Source: Candidatus Saccharimonadia bacterium (lineage in GTDB: Bacteria > Patescibacteriota > Saccharimonadia > UBA4664 > SCTI01). Taken from it: a DNA stretch of 50,070 nt. Positions 9,773-45,783 of this stretch are shown piece by piece. Within the stretch, counting starts at the first letter, position 1. Every line of letters begins with the position of its first letter. The stretch spans positions 1-50,070 of the forward strand of contig JBKJLI010000002.1 of assembly GCA_046597065.1 (NCBI GenBank), given 5' to 3'. The notes beneath the pieces were generated by a model, which made no database searches, was not told where the DNA came from, and was given only the letters and a program-made list of their open reading frames with translations. Made by a program: the position numbers and the translations under genes.

Positions 9773-9950
9773 CTAGATTTTCGATTATTAAGAGTTTGAT
9801 TCTCTTCGACTGCAGAATTCAAAAGTTGGCCACTCCCGCCGGCACACGGTTGAATATCAGCGATCCATGTATTCGCATCGCCCTACCGACCGACGCCGCG
9901 CGCGAACAGGACACTGAGAATCGCCGTCTATTCACCGGCACCGCCTAACC

Positions 9951-9977
9951 TTTAGGCCCTGGTAACCAGGGCCTAAA
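9951..9977. terminator. Perfect 12-bp hairpin, probably a bidirectional terminator
   Basis: TTTAGGCCCTGG-TAA-CCAGGGCCTAAA between convergent genes. Confidence 0.6.
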
Positions 9978-9999
9978 AAGTACTTATATTCATTTAAAT

Positions 10000-10027
10000 A
10001 AAAAACCGGCTACAAGATGTAACCGGT
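10000..10027 (-). terminator. Intrinsic terminator after the NUDIX gene
   Basis: - strand ACCGGTTACA-TCT-TGTAGCCGGT followed by a T run. Confidence 0.65.
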
Positions 10028-10053
10028 AGAGGCGAGTCGTCGGTGCTCGCCCC

Positions 10054-10871: not shown

Positions 10872-12632
10872 ATGGCGAACGAGCCAAAACCAGAAATTTC
10901 ACAAAACCCAACCATAAACTCAAACTCACCCGTACCAACTGCTAGTAATCGAATGCCGCTGCATAAATCACATAAGGTTTTATACGTAGTGATAGCATTT
11001 TTAGTCGCCCTGTTAATTGGGGCCGGGGTATGGCTATACCTACTTTCAAATAATAACGATAATTCCGCCCAACCCGCAAAGCCCAAATCGCAAACTGCAT
11101 CTAAGCCAACGCAATCAAAGGTTGATGCTGATTTAGCTAAGTTTATAAATCCAACAACCGGCGAAACTTGGCTGGCTAGCCCTGTAAAGTTAGCAAAGTT
11201 AGGATATTTTAAAGATAGCGAATCCGAAAATGCAGCGGAGTATTTTAAAGTTGGTAGCCACGGGGCTAACACACTGATTATGGGTGAGTTTACTATGGTC
11301 GGAACCGAGGCGGTAGTGTTCGAAAAGTCACCAGCTGGGCAGGTTACGGCGATCATCCACCCCGATGGCCAAGCGGTGTATGACCAGGATGAGGATAAGT
11401 TTAGAAAAGAAGAGTTTGCTACCAGTATCAAAATTGATTCAACGACCCACTTTGACTCCTTATCACTTCCGCCAAAATTTGATCTTGATAAGGGTTACGT
11501 TGTCACCAAGCCCAACTATGCAACTTTAGGTGACATTATAGATTTTGGGGGCTCGCCGAATGCCCCAAAAACCTCTTTAGTACGTAAGATTGGCGCAAGT
11601 TCGCTATATCGCGATGAAACGGTATATACCGATACAAAATTGACTTCGATTGGCTACCACTTGCAAACACCGCTGGGTACATCTATCAATTTGGGTTATA
11701 CACCCTTAGAACTCGAGGCAAATCAGTACCAATGGTCATCAAATTCAATTGATGACAAGTTTCACGCCATTACTCGCGGATGCGGCGGAAGAGCATCCTC
11801 TGTCTCTAGAGTTGATAACCTGAGTGATGCAGACTTTCGAACGGTTGCTAAATCACCTTCTGGCCAGCAGGTCTACGAGCTGACCGATAGTGGCAGCCCG
11901 CTGATCCAAAAAGCCTACAGTGAATATAAAGACTTTAGTTCGGGTGATACCAGTGATGTTAACGCCGGAATTTCCAAAGCCGACTTTATTAAGGCGCATG
12001 CGATAGTAGGGTATAAGGATCATTTTGGACAGTGGCTAATTTACGTACGAGACCAGCTGGCGCCGGCCGGTGGTTGCGCAAAACCGGTGATATACCTGTA
12101 TCCAACCCATAGCCAGAATGTATCGGTAAGGGTGGGCGCAAATGTCAAATTATCAGAACCCTTTTATGATCCCTTAACCGGGTGGCAAAATGTACTAGCC
12201 AATCCCAACGGCACTTTGAGTGTAGGTGGAGTTAAATATGACTCACTGTTTTGGGAGGGCCCAGGAACGGGTTCGTATCCTTCTATTAACTCAGGGGTAG
12301 TTGTAGCGACCGACCAGGCAGTTACAAAAATTCGCCAGCAATTAGCCGAGCAAGGGTTAAATAGCAAAGAGGTAAACGACTTCGTCGACTATTGGAAAGA
12401 CAAACTACCTAAAACCAAATATGTCCGCTTAACCTGGTTAAATACAGCAGATATGAATCGCCTAGCGCCACTTACAATTAACCCAAAGCCCGATACAACT
12501 ATACGCGTCTTTCTAGACTTTGCCGGTCTCGATACACCCATAGATTTACTGGCGCAGAAACTAAATAAGGTCGATCGTAAAGGCTTTACGGTTGTGGAGT
12601 GGGGCGGATTGTCGCCATATAAGCTTTATTAA
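10872..12632 (+). CDS. N-terminally anchored surface protein with conserved C-terminal KPVIYLYP domain of unknown function
   Basis: TM helix near residues 36-58; KPVIYLYP, LFWEG, FVDYW, IRVF, GFTVVEWGG motifs. Confidence 0.75.
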   Translation: MANEPKPEISQNPTINSNSPVPTASNRMPLHKSHKVLYVVIAFLVALLIGAGVWLYLLSNNNDNSAQPAKPKSQTASKPTQSKVDADLAKFINPTTGETWLASPVKLAKLGYFKDSESENAAEYFKVGSHGANTLIMGEFTMVGTEAVVFEKSPAGQVTAIIHPDGQAVYDQDEDKFRKEEFATSIKIDSTTHFDSLSLPPKFDLDKGYVVTKPNYATLGDIIDFGGSPNAPKTSLVRKIGASSLYRDETVYTDTKLTSIGYHLQTPLGTSINLGYTPLELEANQYQWSSNSIDDKFHAITRGCGGRASSVSRVDNLSDADFRTVAKSPSGQQVYELTDSGSPLIQKAYSEYKDFSSGDTSDVNAGISKADFIKAHAIVGYKDHFGQWLIYVRDQLAPAGGCAKPVIYLYPTHSQNVSVRVGANVKLSEPFYDPLTGWQNVLANPNGTLSVGGVKYDSLFWEGPGTGSYPSINSGVVVATDQAVTKIRQQLAEQGLNSKEVNDFVDYWKDKLPKTKYVRLTWLNTADMNRLAPLTINPKPDTTIRVFLDFAGLDTPIDLLAQKLNKVDRKGFTVVEWGGLSPYKLY

Positions 12633-12746
12633 GTCTTAACTTTTTTATTGAAGAATATTTAATATGTTAATTAATTCATCTTTAACTAAGCCCCGCGAGG
12701 TCATTGCTGCCTAGTGGGGCCTCGTACTATTAATTGTAATTATTTG

Positions 12747-12774
12747 TTGACACCATTTTAGCCGGGAGTATCAT
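12747..12774 (+). promoter_or_regulatory. Sigma70-type promoter upstream of candidate ncRNA 1
   Basis: TTGACA-16 nt-TATCAT with AT-rich sequence upstream. Confidence 0.65.
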
Positions 12775-12780
12775 TGAGAT

Positions 12781-13162
12781 GTACGCAAGTATGAACACGC
12801 GACCCGGCAAAGGGGCAATGACATCATGATCCGAGGTACCGAGGCCTAGAAGGCCTGCCGCAAGCCGAAGTTCTTCCCTGGAGGGAAGTAGGTGAGTAAG
12901 GGCGGGTTCAAGCCCGTGGCGCTGGACCGTTAGAGCTGCCTCCCGTGGTAGTTCGTACGGGCTTGGCCCGTCTTTACCGCCGTTCGACGTTCGAGCACCA
13001 GTAAGTTCGTCTCGCAAGTTCAGCACCTCCTCACACCGGTTCCTGTCGGTCTTACCCGACACAGCACCCCCCGCTGGCAGTCTAAACTTGACTGCGGAAC
13101 CATCGATCACCGCCCTGGTGGATTAAGGCACGGATGCCTTGATTCACCGGGGTGATTTTTTT
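12781..13162 (+). ncRNA. Candidate large structured ncRNA of unknown class (ncRNA 1)
   Basis: Promoter, at least six local hairpins, long-range stem 12827-12841/13095-13109, terminator; G-U pairs favour the + strand; no credible ORF. Confidence 0.7.
13111..13162 (+). terminator. Intrinsic terminator
   Basis: 20-bp stem 13111-13130/13135-13154 with four G-U pairs, CGGA loop, then ATTTTTTT. Confidence 0.85.
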
Positions 13163-13225
13163 ATCAGCAAATATTAAGTCTAAGTCTGTATCATCAAGGA
13201 TGTCATAACCAAATAGGAGGTATCT

Positions 13226-13723
13226 ATGGCATCGAAAAGAACAATTTTGGCCGGGGGGTTGGCCAGCTTAGCAGCAGTTGCAGTAATTGGCGTGGGTTCG
13301 GTGGGCGCTGCAAGCCAAACTGGAGCCGGCAACAATCTAAGCGACAAAATATCATCGGCCTTTCATTTAAATAAAGCCGATGTGCAGAAAGTCATCGATC
13401 AAGATCACAGCGAGCACATGGCTCAGCGCGAGGCAGAGCACCAAGCCAAGTTAGATCAAGCGGTTAAGGATGGCAAAATTACTTCAGCCCAGAAGGATCA
13501 ACTAGAAGCTAAGCAAAAAGAATTGCGTAGCTTCATGGACACACTGAAAGATAAAAGCGAGTCTGAGCGGCATACCGCCATGAAGGCAAAGCTTGATGAG
13601 TTTAAGCAGTGGGCAACCGACAACAAGATTTCTGCGGATGTTGTAGGGCCTGGTCATCACAGGGGGCATATGGAAGGACGCATGGGCGGACACATGGACG
13701 TCGATATGCCTGAAGCTAACTAA
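13226..13723 (+). CDS. Secreted helical hypothetical protein upstream of a two-component pair
   Basis: SD AGGAGG; signal peptide; LDQAVKDGKIT..Q motif; G/H/M-rich tail. Confidence 0.8.
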   Translation: MASKRTILAGGLASLAAVAVIGVGSVGAASQTGAGNNLSDKISSAFHLNKADVQKVIDQDHSEHMAQREAEHQAKLDQAVKDGKITSAQKDQLEAKQKELRSFMDTLKDKSESERHTAMKAKLDEFKQWATDNKISADVVGPGHHRGHMEGRMGGHMDVDMPEAN

Positions 13724-13779
13724 GCTGTAACTACAATCCCCAAGTATCATCAAACCAGCGCGTAGGATGATTAAAAGCG

Positions 13780-13804
13780 ACCGCCGATCCGCATCGGCGG
13801 TTTT
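13780..13804 (+). terminator. Intrinsic terminator
   Basis: CCGCCGAT-CCGC-ATCGGCGG-TTTT. Confidence 0.75.
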
Positions 13805-13920
13805 GCTATTGTTAACTGATTATTAGCATCGCTAGGGGTATAAATGCGCTTTAAATTGGCTGTAAGGCCTAAAAAAAGTCTTTCAGCGTACTCTCAGATA
13901 AAAGCGTTTACAATGATGTT

Positions 13921-14607
13921 ATGAGAATTCTAGTCGTCGAAGACGAACATAAGATTGCTGGCGCCATTAAAAGGGGGCTAGAGCAGGAGTCGTTTGCCGT
14001 TGATGTAGCCTACGACGCCGATGAAGGTGTAACGTTAGCCACCAGCGAAGATTATGATTTGGTTATTCTAGACCGTATGCTCCCCGGCTTAATTGAGGGA
14101 GTGGATATCGTAAAAGAGATGCGAGCAAATCAAATCCACACACCTGTACTGCTACTTACCGCTAAAGACAAAATTGAGGATCGTGTCACCGGTTTAAATG
14201 CCGGAGCCGATGATTATTTGGTAAAGCCTTTTGCTTTTACAGAACTGTTAGCGCGATCGCGGGCACTACTAAGACGCCCTCAAGAAACCCTGGATACGGT
14301 ATTAAAATGTGATGACTTAGAGCTAAATACCGTTAGCTTTGAAGTTCGACGAGCCGGCAAGCCAATCAAACTTTCGGCAAAAGAGTTCGCCTTGCTAGGG
14401 TATATGCTGCGCAATCAGAATCAAACCCTAACCAAAAACCATCTAATAAACCACGTTTGGGATTATGATGCTGACGTATTGCCGAACACTGTAGAAGTTT
14501 ATATTGGCTATTTGCGTAACAAAATTGATCGTCCATTTAATGGGCCAGATTTGATTCATACCAGCCGCGGCTTTGGCTACAAGCTGGGCGTAGCCAGCCA
14601 TGTTTAA
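13921..14607 (+). CDS. OmpR/PhoB-family response regulator
   Basis: RILVVEDE, LDRMLPG, GADDYLVKPF, winged helix VEVYIGYLRNKID..RGFGY. Confidence 0.95.
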   Translation: MRILVVEDEHKIAGAIKRGLEQESFAVDVAYDADEGVTLATSEDYDLVILDRMLPGLIEGVDIVKEMRANQIHTPVLLLTAKDKIEDRVTGLNAGADDYLVKPFAFTELLARSRALLRRPQETLDTVLKCDDLELNTVSFEVRRAGKPIKLSAKEFALLGYMLRNQNQTLTKNHLINHVWDYDADVLPNTVEVYIGYLRNKIDRPFNGPDLIHTSRGFGYKLGVASHV

Positions 14608-15625
14608 ATCAGCTACCCTGCGGCTAACCGGCTGGTATCTAGTTATTGTAATGGCGCTGAGTTTGTTTTTTAGTTTTGTGATATATCAAAACTCAACCCA
14701 TGAGTTGGATAATAGTTTGCGCCATCAGCTGGGAGTTTTTCAGCAGGTGCCGCGAGTGACGGTTAATGGTCAGGTTTTTGATTTTGAGATGTTAAGAGAG
14801 CGCCAATTAGATGAGGGGCAACAGCATCTTAGAGCTTATTTAATTAACTTAAACCTGTTAATTTTATTGGTTGCGGGATTTGGTAGTTACTTTTTAGCAC
14901 GACGGACTTTGCGGCCGATCGAAGAAGCGCTTGAAGCTCAAAGTCGGTTTACAGCCGATGCCTCACATGAACTGCGTACACCTCTAACAGCCATGAAAGC
15001 CGAAATCGAAGTGGCGCTGCGTGATACCAAACTTAACACCAGCGATGCTAAGCTATTGTTCGAAAGTAATTTAGAAGAGATTGAAAAGCTGGAGTTGCTT
15101 TCAAATAGTTTGTTAATGCTGGCGCAAGGAAGTGACGGTCAAAAAGCTCATAAACTGGTTTTGATTAACAAGGTTTTTATAGAGGCCGAGACCAGGACCA
15201 AAAAGTTAGTCAAAATAAGCAAAACTCAATTACTAATTAAAACACCACAGGCCAGTGTTCGAGGCGATTTTGACAGCTTGGTCGAGCTACTTGTAATTTT
15301 GATCGACAACGCTATTAAATACGGTGCTGATGATAAGCGCGTTGAGTTGAGCGGCCGAGCAAGCACAAAATGGCTAACCATCGAGTTAAGTGATAACGGC
15401 AGGGGGATTGCCCCCAAAGATTTGCCCCATATATTCAGTCGTTTTTACCGGGCCGACGAATCTAGGAACAAAAAACAGGTTGGCGGTTTTGGCTTGGGGC
15501 TAGCAATTGCTAAGCAAATTGTGGAAATGCATCATGGCACAATCATGGTTGAAAGCGTTCCCGGTAGTGGTACCAAGTTTGTTATTAGGCTTCCGCTGGC
15601 CGTATCACCAAATCCAACCAATTAA
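14600..15625 (+). CDS. Sensor histidine kinase
   Basis: Two TM helices, H box DASHELRTPL, N box DNAIKY, DNGRGI, FSRFYR, GFGLGLAI. Confidence 0.95.
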   Translation: MFKSATLRLTGWYLVIVMALSLFFSFVIYQNSTHELDNSLRHQLGVFQQVPRVTVNGQVFDFEMLRERQLDEGQQHLRAYLINLNLLILLVAGFGSYFLARRTLRPIEEALEAQSRFTADASHELRTPLTAMKAEIEVALRDTKLNTSDAKLLFESNLEEIEKLELLSNSLLMLAQGSDGQKAHKLVLINKVFIEAETRTKKLVKISKTQLLIKTPQASVRGDFDSLVELLVILIDNAIKYGADDKRVELSGRASTKWLTIELSDNGRGIAPKDLPHIFSRFYRADESRNKKQVGGFGLGLAIAKQIVEMHHGTIMVESVPGSGTKFVIRLPLAVSPNPTN

Positions 15626-44880: not shown

Positions 44881-44896
44881 GGGAACAGAAATATAG

Positions 44897-44937
44897 AACC
44901 CCCTACAGCAAGAAAAGTAATCCTGCTATAGGGGGCT
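44897..44937 (-). terminator. Hairpin terminator between convergent genes
   Basis: - strand AGCCCCCTATAGCAGGA..TCTTGCTGTAGGGGGTT. Confidence 0.7.
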
Positions 44938-44941
44938 ATTG

Positions 44942-45367
44942 TCAGCTTCCGCTGACGATGAACTTCGAGACCGTGGCAGAGCCAACAGGCATCGAGATTC
45001 TGACCGTCTGGTGGTTGTCGTCGAAGGCGGCGACCAGTGTGGGCTGGTAGAAGCGTTCGAGGCACAACATGCGGCTGGTCTGCGGTGTGTTGTACGGGTT
45101 GTAAAACCCAACATCGGCCTGGTTGCCGCCGAGAATGCTGAGGTTGATGACCTCGCCGGGATCGAGCGAGTTGAGGCCGAAGCTGAAGCTGAAGCAGATC
45201 TGGTTGTAGGTCTGCTTGTTTCCCGGGAAGACCACCCGCACAGAGGCGGTCTGGGTGGGCGACAACAGGAAGCTGCTGGGCTGGGTCACCACGTTTGCGT
45301 TGGCGGCCGGAGCAACGAGTGCGCCGAAGGCAAGCATCGTTACGACCATGGTGAGGAACTTGCTCAT
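44942..45367 (-). CDS. GC-rich secreted hypothetical protein
   Basis: AGGAGG SD, promoter TTGACA-17-TAATAT (45435-45407), signal peptide ending AANA, two Cys. Confidence 0.8.
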   Translation of the reverse strand: MSKFLTMVVTMLAFGALVAPAANANVVTQPSSFLLSPTQTASVRVVFPGNKQTYNQICFSFSFGLNSLDPGEVINLSILGGNQADVGFYNPYNTPQTSRMLCLERFYQPTLVAAFDDNHQTVRISMPVGSATVSKFIVSGS

Positions 45368-45783
45368 GATGGACCTCCTGGGTCCTAGGAGTTGGCAATG
45401 TTGCATATATTAACATAAGAACTAACTATTGTCAATACTAGCTAATATGTATAGAATTTGTTGCATAGTATCTAGTACTCCGATATCCAAGATTATAAGA
45501 ATAAGAATAGTAGTGACATAGACGTGCCATATTATAGTTCAAAATACGAAAAGAGCCTCCAGAAAGCAGAAGATTTTTCAGTTCTGATTGAGGGCTAGGT
45601 GCCTATGCGAGGAGTTTCGTTTTCGCCCGTACTCAATATCTTCGTGAGTTGAGGCTGATTGATGATAGGAAGCTGGGCCTCTAGCGAGGAATTCTGGCTC
45701 GAATCCTTGATGTGCAGCGCCCGTTCATAAGGGCTATAATATACATAAAGTCTCAATTTTAGCTCGGAGCGACTAATATTAAA

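Follow-up and report, generated by a model that had tools for sequence, protein, structure and literature searches.

An orphan promoter-to-terminator unit in a Candidatus Saccharimonadia genome as a putative gene of a structured small RNA

Introduction

Large structured RNAs of unknown function, among them OLE, GOLLD, ROOL and the raiA motif, are known from bacteria and have their families in Rfam. C-rich small RNAs (sRNAs) of Gram-positive bacteria, i.e., those of the RsaE/RoxS type, pair with ribosome-binding sites through exposed C-rich seeds, and terminator-type leaders (riboswitches, T-boxes and protein-dependent attenuators) are a further kind of structured RNA. The element considered here lies at positions 12747–13162 in a 50,070-nt stretch of DNA from Candidatus Saccharimonadia bacterium (assembly GCA_046597065.1, contig JBKJLI010000002.1), referred to as the window, that constitutes the first 50 kb of contig 1 (C1) of a genome of 716,426 bases in three contigs, 97% complete. 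The analysis supports a plus-strand unit with exceptional hairpin density that belongs to no known RNA class; its interpretation as an RNA gene is plausible but unproven.

The locus resembles OLE, GOLLD, ROOL and raiA in that it is several hundred nucleotides long, GC-rich in relation to its flanks, stand-alone and of multibranched predicted fold. However, those classes are defined by conservation across species and by covariation, whereas the target has neither a homologue in anything searched nor a match to any of them. With the RsaE/RoxS-type sRNAs it shares a strong promoter of its own, an intrinsic terminator, the lack of a plus-strand open reading frame (ORF) and C-rich stretches that are predicted to be single-stranded (the linker CACCUCCUCACACC and the loop ACCCCCC). 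Unlike them it is 380 nt long, thus several times longer, it matches no such Rfam family at E ≤10, and it displays neither enrichment of target sites nor conservation beyond a near-identical strain. As in terminator-type leaders, a structured region and a terminator are followed by a strong ribosome-binding site, but neither an aptamer family nor an alternative antiterminator was found, and homologues of the downstream gene in the other genomes examined are not preceded by a leader. The target is best filed as an orphan promoter-to-terminator small RNA gene of ordinary kind.

Promoter, Terminator and Hairpin Density

The unit opens with a sigma-70-type promoter that agrees with the consensus at 11 of 12 positions (Table 1). 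Sites of at least this quality number only 29 genome-wide when both strands are counted (1.43 million strand positions), and most of them sit 13–60 nt before an ORF, one lying about 290 nt upstream of the 16S rRNA. Transcription is predicted to start near 12781. The body of about 330 bases that follows has a GC content of 0.62, compared with 0.37–0.47 in the flanks, and contains no plus-strand ORF of at least 20 codons between promoter and terminator. The terminator, which looks constitutive and has a stem of −35.6 kcal/mol, ranks first in length among the 53 detected in a genome-wide scan for a T-rich tail behind an uninterrupted stem of at least 10 pairs. That so strong a promoter and, 340 nt later on the same strand, the best terminator of the genome occur together is no matter of chance. 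The promoter, the GC-rich block behind it and the 20-bp terminator with its U tract had all been named in a first-pass annotation made from the letters of the window, and each was recovered. By prediction, the locus thus possesses what defines a stand-alone sRNA: its own promoter, an intrinsic terminator and no translated ORF.

Five perfect 6-bp hairpins with loops of 3–7 nt are found in the body, starting at 12842, 12873, 12957, 13044 and 13077. Dinucleotide shuffles (n = 2000) contain 0.52 ± 0.71 such hairpins and none of the 2000 reaches five. Among 6505 segments of 330 nt taken across the genome, five hairpins were present in only four; two of these represent one convergent-terminator locus (9773–10053), one lies near a tRNA of contig 3 and one is the target. 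Among the segments with a GC content of at least 0.58 (n = 164), the one at the target has four hairpins and all others have at most three, while the four-hairpin segments of the genome include the RNase P RNA, the 16S leader and a tRNA-Ser cluster. Hairpin density, unlike the folding z-score, did separate RNA genes from GC-rich coding sequence in this genome. Six hairpins had been listed in the first-pass annotation: five are the perfect ones given above, whereas the sixth (12902–12917) has a stem of only 4–5 bp and gives way to a long rod in the minimum free energy (MFE) structure.

The segment 9773–10053 is itself a gap between convergent genes with five perfect hairpins, and it is a folding outlier on both strands. 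It holds an 11-bp perfect hairpin (about 9953–9975) and a minus-strand terminator (10027–10005), and its hairpins are probably stacked terminators.

Predicted Fold of the Transcript

In the MFE structure the transcript is divided into a 5′ hairpin, a multibranch domain with a central rod, a linker, a four-way junction and the terminator hairpin (Table 1). The 5′ domain contains the hairpins 12842–12856 (AGGCCU/AGGCCU) and 12873–12888 (CUUCCC/GGGAAG); its closing helices are poorly defined, since positional entropy is high at 12781–12840 and 12981–13020. The region of the rod has the lowest positional entropy of the core, and an alternative to the rod is formed by two local hairpins, 12902–12917 and 12957–12971. 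The four-way junction is composed of hairpins 13044–13061, 13062–13076 (with the loop ACCCCCC) and 13077–13095. Two longer-range helices proposed earlier did not survive refolding. In the stem 12827–12841/13095–13109 only 11 of 15 positions can pair, and it does not occur in the MFE structure, where 13096–13101 pairs with 13038–13043; the inner stem 12918–12926/13019–13027 is likewise absent from it.

In all eight letters the linker word CACCUCCU is identical to the 3′ end of the 16S rRNA of this genome, and it occurs 13 times in the genome when both strands are counted. Read on the minus strand it is GAGGAGGTG. A direct repeat, CAGCACCTCC/CAGCACCCCC, is located at 13021 and 13062.

For the unit as a whole the folding energy is −170.3 kcal/mol (z −6.16, compared with −2.62 on the opposite strand), much of which is supplied by the terminator. 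The core alone gave z-scores against shuffles of −3.83 (plus) and −1.22 (minus), or −3.09 and −1.35 in a second run; the core folds of the two strands have only 46 pairs in common. By MFE, the segments at the target ranked 13th and 17th of 1740 segment-strands in the first 130 kb of contig 1.

Table 1. Positions of the elements of the locus, of the reading frames that overlap it, of its neighboring genes and of the gene cassette compared with it; all positions refer to the window.
Feature	Positions	Strand	Description and basis
Sigma-70-type promoter	12747–12774	+	TTGACA (12747–12752), 16-nt spacer, TATCAT (12769–12774); 11/12
5′ hairpin	12781–12792	+	GUAC-GCAA-GUAU, GNRA-type loop; MFE helices
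5′ multibranch domain	12793–13021	+	Weak 4-bp closing helices 12793–12796/13018–13021 and 12799–12802/13012–13015
Central rod	12891–12981	+	26 pairs (4 + 12 + 10), inner hairpins 12919–12930 and 12933–12954; MFE
Linker	13022–13037	+	Unpaired, C/U-rich, 16 nt, with CACCUCCU; predicted fold
3′ four-way junction	13038–13101	+	Closing stem GGUUCC/GGAACC; positional entropy 0.02–0.09
Intrinsic terminator	13111–13162 (hairpin 13111–13154)	+	20-bp stem, loop CGGA, A, then T7 (13156–13162)
Minus-strand ORF	12730–13110	−	126 codons, GTG start; or 95 codons from TTG at 13017
Plus-strand frame 0	12826–13155	+	ATG 12826 to TGA 13153; third-position GC 0.72
586-aa membrane-anchored protein gene	10872–12632		No Pfam family; upstream neighbor of the locus
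165-aa exported protein gene	13226–13723		No Pfam family; downstream neighbor, OmpR-type response regulator and histidine kinase next
GC-rich gene cassette	44890–45435	−	Promoter TTGACA-17-TAATAT with TG, AGGAGG, ATG near 45367, 17-bp terminator

Known RNA Classes

A cmscan search with 4227 Rfam families gave no match at gathering level, and over 12600–13300 none fell in the body at E ≤10. The only row at E ≤10 was a 14-bit match to a small nucleolar RNA (13159–13237, minus strand), just past the terminator, that is taken as chance. No known family was therefore found at the locus, in agreement with the earlier claim that no signature of RNase P, transfer-messenger RNA (tmRNA), signal recognition particle (SRP) RNA or a riboswitch is present. 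The RNase P RNA (RF00010) has no match at the locus at E ≤10, the genome copy being located on contig 2 (C2:212735–213117, 254.6 bits). The tmRNA (RF00023) was found in the window neither by the covariance model nor by ARAGORN, and its genome copy lies at C2:226917–227295 (107 bits). The locus also gave no covariance-model match to 6S RNA (RF00013), a rod of about 185 nt with a central bubble. A sub-threshold 6S candidate is present elsewhere, at C2:210736–210894 (44.4 bits against a cut-off of 46.4); it adjoins a tRNA-Pro and lies 1.8 kb from the RNase P RNA.

SRP RNA (RF00169, RF01854) was matched neither at the locus nor elsewhere in the genome. Neither Ffh nor FtsY was found in the genome, nor was an SRP_SPB domain; the best match to the SRP54 GTPase has 19.1 bits over 35 positions, and the best one to TIGR00959 (ffh) has 18.6 bits. 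In 20 relatives from 12 families the sole PF00448 match reached 22.8 bits over 38 positions, and all 14 control genomes were positive. Judged by these profile searches, the SRP pathway seems to be missing from the genome and from the 20 relatives. The SRP passages of PMC10768705 appear to concern the genes of the host. Among the tRNAs, ARAGORN reports a tRNA-Arg (gcg) of 90 nt on the minus strand (C1:74257–74346) that may carry an insertion or intron, as the other Arg tRNAs have 76–77 nt.

Relatives and Strain Variation

The locus is single copy in its own genome, as judged by BLAST. The same program detected a homologue in none of 60 relatives and in none of 400 genomes of the class, where only matches of 17–44 nt occurred (E 0.006 to 0.1). 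A covariance model that combined the sequence with the predicted fold found none in 150 relatives (best E 0.24, 10.6 bits), and nhmmer and blastn found none in 33 fetched loci; nor was there one in phage and plasmid collections. In metagenome contigs, 211 stretches were reached via peptides of the 165-aa neighbor and none was confirmed, while a 23-mer gave 0 matches; three sequence patterns gave 0 matches each in viral contigs. The search for homologues with nhmmer and Infernal that had been suggested in the first-pass annotation thus yielded none in anything searched. A 20-mer did match eight times in genome contigs, but these matches are due to chance: they lie in unrelated coding-like sequence of high GC content (peptide GGFKPV), their flanks are unrelated as well, and neither a tRNA nor a hit of the covariance model accompanies them.

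The 379-nt tmRNA of the genome served as a control. It was matched by BLAST in 48 of the 60 relatives and, at 70–78% identity over its full length, in seven of nine genomes of the same family. Since the control does find relatives, the blank obtained for the element is real at the level of the family, and the element is confined to this species or genus. No printed account of such an RNA was found under the names of the group in a literature search that was not exhaustive.

The locus is present in only three public runs, all of soil DNA and none of RNA; one of the three may be the source of the window. Run X2 contains, as short contigs, a related strain about 3% away. In its displayed flank pieces 35 of 1074 bases differ (3.3%), 5 of them among the 174 bases of the intergenic spacer that follows the 165-aa gene, whereas the pieces over the RNA body (12781–12829 and 13067–13162, 145 bases) have at most one difference, and no difference is listed anywhere in 12781–13162. 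At the rate of the flanks 4.7 differences would be expected (P ~0.05, Poisson estimate). This comparison of sequences may be taken as modest evidence of constraint on the RNA body, and it argues against a neutral relic. Both promoter hexamers are free of listed differences in the related-strain contigs of runs X2 and X3 where these cover them; in the X2 strain position 12777, which lies downstream of the −10 hexamer and ahead of the start, is changed.

Outside the window, the plus strand of contig 2 (C2:221602–222270) contains a second orphan RNA candidate of the same layout. It has a promoter TTGACA-17-TAGAAT and a 10-bp terminator, and its predicted RNA of 633 nt (C2:221637–222269) is 53–63% GC over about 620 nt and folds at −308.5 kcal/mol (z −11.62; −6.32 on the minus strand). 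It shows no period-three signal (p = 0.14), no Rfam match at E ≤0.01, no BLAST match in the 60 relatives and no Pfam families in its inner ORFs. Kinship with the target was considered and dismissed, the two having no common word longer than 8 nt. The second orphan RNA is a better candidate than the target.

Genomic Setting

The unit lies between the genes of two proteins without a Pfam family (Table 1). No reverse transcriptase, nuclease or transposase was found among the six neighboring ORFs scanned, which confirms the earlier statement that none is nearby. Between the 586-aa gene and the promoter there is a hairpin (GCCCCG.../...TGGGGC, 12690–12720), whose G-U pair 12695/12715 is replaced by G-C (T>C at 12715) in the related strains that runs X2 and X3 contain; such a swap fits a plus-strand RNA hairpin. 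The 165-aa protein has a C-terminus rich in His and Met (GHHRGHMEGRMGGHMDVDM), and together with the OmpR-type regulator and the histidine kinase that follow it (13226–15625) it may constitute a metal- or envelope-stress module.

Interpretation and Alternative Explanations

An even chance is given to the interpretation that the locus encodes a stand-alone, untranslated plus-strand RNA of about 380 nt, confined to this species or genus, and we infer that such an RNA is made and stable. The unit would be transcribed from about 12781 to about 13160, and the transcript would fold into the 5′ multibranch domain with its 26-bp rod, an exposed linker, the 3′ four-way junction that bears a C-rich loop, and the hairpin of the terminator. 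The RNA would then act in trans. Most likely it would base-pair through its exposed C-rich stretches to the ribosome-binding sites of mRNAs, a mode of action suggested by the exposed anti-Shine-Dalgarno word in the linker; by analogy with the C-rich sRNAs such pairing is conceivable, and the strong AGGAGGU of the neighboring 165-aa gene would be a possible partner. As for its origin, the period-three rhythm described below suggests that the body may descend from a gene cassette rich in GC at third codon positions (GC3), like the one at 45367–44942; the ancestral promoter and terminator would have been kept, and the body would later have been retained as RNA.

Several observations weigh against this interpretation. 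The GC content of the three phases from 12781 is 0.56, 0.50 and 0.72 (chi-square 11.5, p = 0.003), and only 0.36% of shuffles reach this period-three signal, which neither the RNase P RNA nor the tmRNA nor the second orphan RNA displays; for the 16S rRNA, the maximum over 11 overlapping segments is 9.1. The signal exceeds that of the median coding segment of the genome, and 23% of all genome segments reach the same level. Base pairing was considered as its source and rejected, because the pairs fall into phases as 26/41/36 and the unpaired bases display the pattern as well (0.42, 0.30, 0.61); a pairing-independent set keeps it (p = 0.012). Folding energy is of little help in this genome. When 330-nt segments with GC of at least 0.58 inside its long ORFs were used as controls, z ≤−3.09 was reached by 5 of 17 in the sense and 5 of 17 in the antisense direction, and the body of a real GC-rich gene in the window has z −5.1/−4.2; since coding controls reach the z of the target, the z-score fails to separate RNA genes from GC-rich coding sequence here. 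The first-pass annotation had held that its RNA gene would be refuted by a folding energy no better than that of shuffles or by conservation that follows codon structure. What was found lies partly on that side: the energy beats shuffles, yet GC-rich coding segments from this genome do just as well, and the composition follows a codon-like period of three. Its remark that G-U pairs favor the plus strand is borne out by the terminator only, which has one G-U pair when read on the minus strand and four on the plus strand, the latter being mismatches in a minus-strand RNA. The core shows no such bias, its G-U pairs being 10 of 103 on the plus and 12 of 105 on the minus strand. As no homologue was found, there is also no alignment and no covariation. 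On the minus strand, GAGGAGGTG stands 8 nt before the in-frame TTG of an ORF (Table 1), whose codon log-odds of 0.08–0.10, scored against the long ORFs of the genome, equal those of the real GC-rich cassette gene (0.10). Finally, the pairing mode rests on one 8-mer that was noticed post hoc and that is the same word as this ribosome-binding site. Complementarity to the linker does not occur in the genome more often than expected by chance; sites that resemble ribosome-binding sites and have 9–11 nt of complementarity (e.g., C2:83076, C1:206357 and C2:108483) are within chance in number.

The codon-like rhythm invites two coding explanations. According to one of them, which we regard as rather unlikely, the plus strand is a decayed or TAG-interrupted GC3-rich gene cassette, so that the transcript would be an mRNA relic and the minus-strand ORF a shadow; the layout would be a promoter, a short 5′ untranslated region, the ATG at 12826, the stop at 13153 and the terminator, like that of the gene for a secreted protein of 141–154 aa at 45367–44942. 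This gene (about 141 aa, with a signal-peptide-like start and no Pfam family) has a GC3 of 0.83 against a genome mean of 0.50, and its cassette looks like recently acquired foreign DNA. The target resembles it in the near-consensus promoter, the GC-rich body, the very long terminator hairpin (17–20 bp in the two) and a similar third-position bias, with third-phase GC of 0.77–0.87 across 12781–12990. Codon choice is also alike, as the plus frame contains TTC 5 times against TTT once, AAG 8 times against AAA once, ACC 7 times, CAC 5 times and ATC 3 times. All four TAG trinucleotides of the region (12847, 12889, 12931 and 12949) lie in plus frame 0, which has no other stop before 13153 and with which the minus-strand ORF is codon-aligned. 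The cassette gene, however, has an intact frame with AGGAGG and ATG, whereas the frame of the target is cut by the four TAGs and has no convincing ribosome-binding site. Four nonsense codons without a frameshift are odd for decay, and no tandem or 42-nt repeat was found behind the spaced TAGs. Recoding of TAG was rejected, since it is a normal stop that ends 128 of 407 long ORFs and no CTA anticodon occurs among 47 tRNAs. The plus translation has no match among 5.8 billion clusters (range of 59–191 residues), no Pfam or PHROG family and a single-sequence AlphaFold pLDDT (predicted local distance difference test) of 44.7, and its native codon log-odds of −0.07 is like that of shadow frames. Moreover, a neutral relic should vary at least as much as its flanks, yet the body hardly differs in X2, and five perfect hairpins are unexpected in coding sequence, given the counts in the other GC-rich segments. 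According to the other explanation, to which we assign very little probability, the minus-strand ORF (95–126 aa) is a real orphan gene and the plus unit an overlapping antisense RNA, in the style of cis-antisense or type I toxin-antitoxin systems. In its favor, 126 codons are open where about 4.4 stops would be expected, first-position G (0.41) and T (0.11) are as in real genes, the ribosome-binding site precedes the TTG, and its exact complement is predicted to lie unpaired in the plus RNA. The codon log-odds lie about one standard deviation above the mean of shadow ORFs (−0.07 ± 0.12), while free-standing ORFs have a median of 0.19. But the sole promoter-like site on the minus strand scores 9/12, no terminator stands behind the ORF, its last 17 codons are the AT-rich promoter of the plus unit, and its first-position GC of 0.76–0.87 is found in <1% of segments of real ORFs. 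Among 1.84 billion representatives only its own gene call, a public 95-aa call that forms a singleton cluster from this contig alone, and one weak stretch of 33 residues were found, with no Pfam or PHROG match. The AlphaFold pLDDT from the single sequence is 37.7 and below 50 at 126 of 126 residues, recognition by the protein atlas is 1985 (91 of 100 real proteins reach 2300), and the density of hairpins is left unexplained. The minus-strand ORF is probably a shadow frame. Neither translation has paralogues in the genome, relatives or a confident fold.

It is also quite improbable that the unit serves the downstream operon (the 165-aa protein gene at 13226, the OmpR-type regulator and the histidine kinase) as a long 5′ leader, in which some factor would permit read-through and the linker word ACCUCCU could mask the strong AGGAGGU of the 13226 gene in read-through RNA. 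Such a leader would fit the 64 nt from the end of the terminator to the start codon at 13226, the lack of any promoter-like site of at least 9/12 on the plus strand in 13155–13225, the complementarity of the linker to the 7-nt Shine-Dalgarno sequence of the gene and the regulatory nature of the operon. Yet the terminator is the strongest in the genome and has no competing antiterminator: once the 3′ arm is taken away, pairing of the 5′ arm with 13026–13037 yields no more than −5.6 kcal/mol, compared with −35.6 kcal/mol in the terminator, and a conventional attenuator for this gene, which the first-pass annotation offered as an alternative, was hence not borne out. No riboswitch or leader family is matched. 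Homologues of the 165-aa protein are present in 38 of 60 relatives, and none of the 19 loci examined has a similar sequence; where readable, these loci have ORFs that end about 30–170 nt upstream of the homologue, which leaves no room for a leader of 400 nt.

Implications

If the stand-alone RNA gene is real, some 400 bases of a very reduced genome, together with one of its top promoters and its strongest terminator, are devoted to an RNA that is unshared by its relatives. This would suggest that regulatory RNAs evolve fast in a group in which RNA biology has hardly been studied. For sequence scans the locus carries a caution, since folding z-scores against shuffles are non-discriminating in this genome and the public gene call sits on the opposite strand. 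It is possible, though doubtful, that the locus is a functional, species-specific large structured RNA of an undescribed class, one of at least two in the genome. Were this true, ultra-small genomes would continue to create and maintain their own large structured RNAs even after the loss of SRP.

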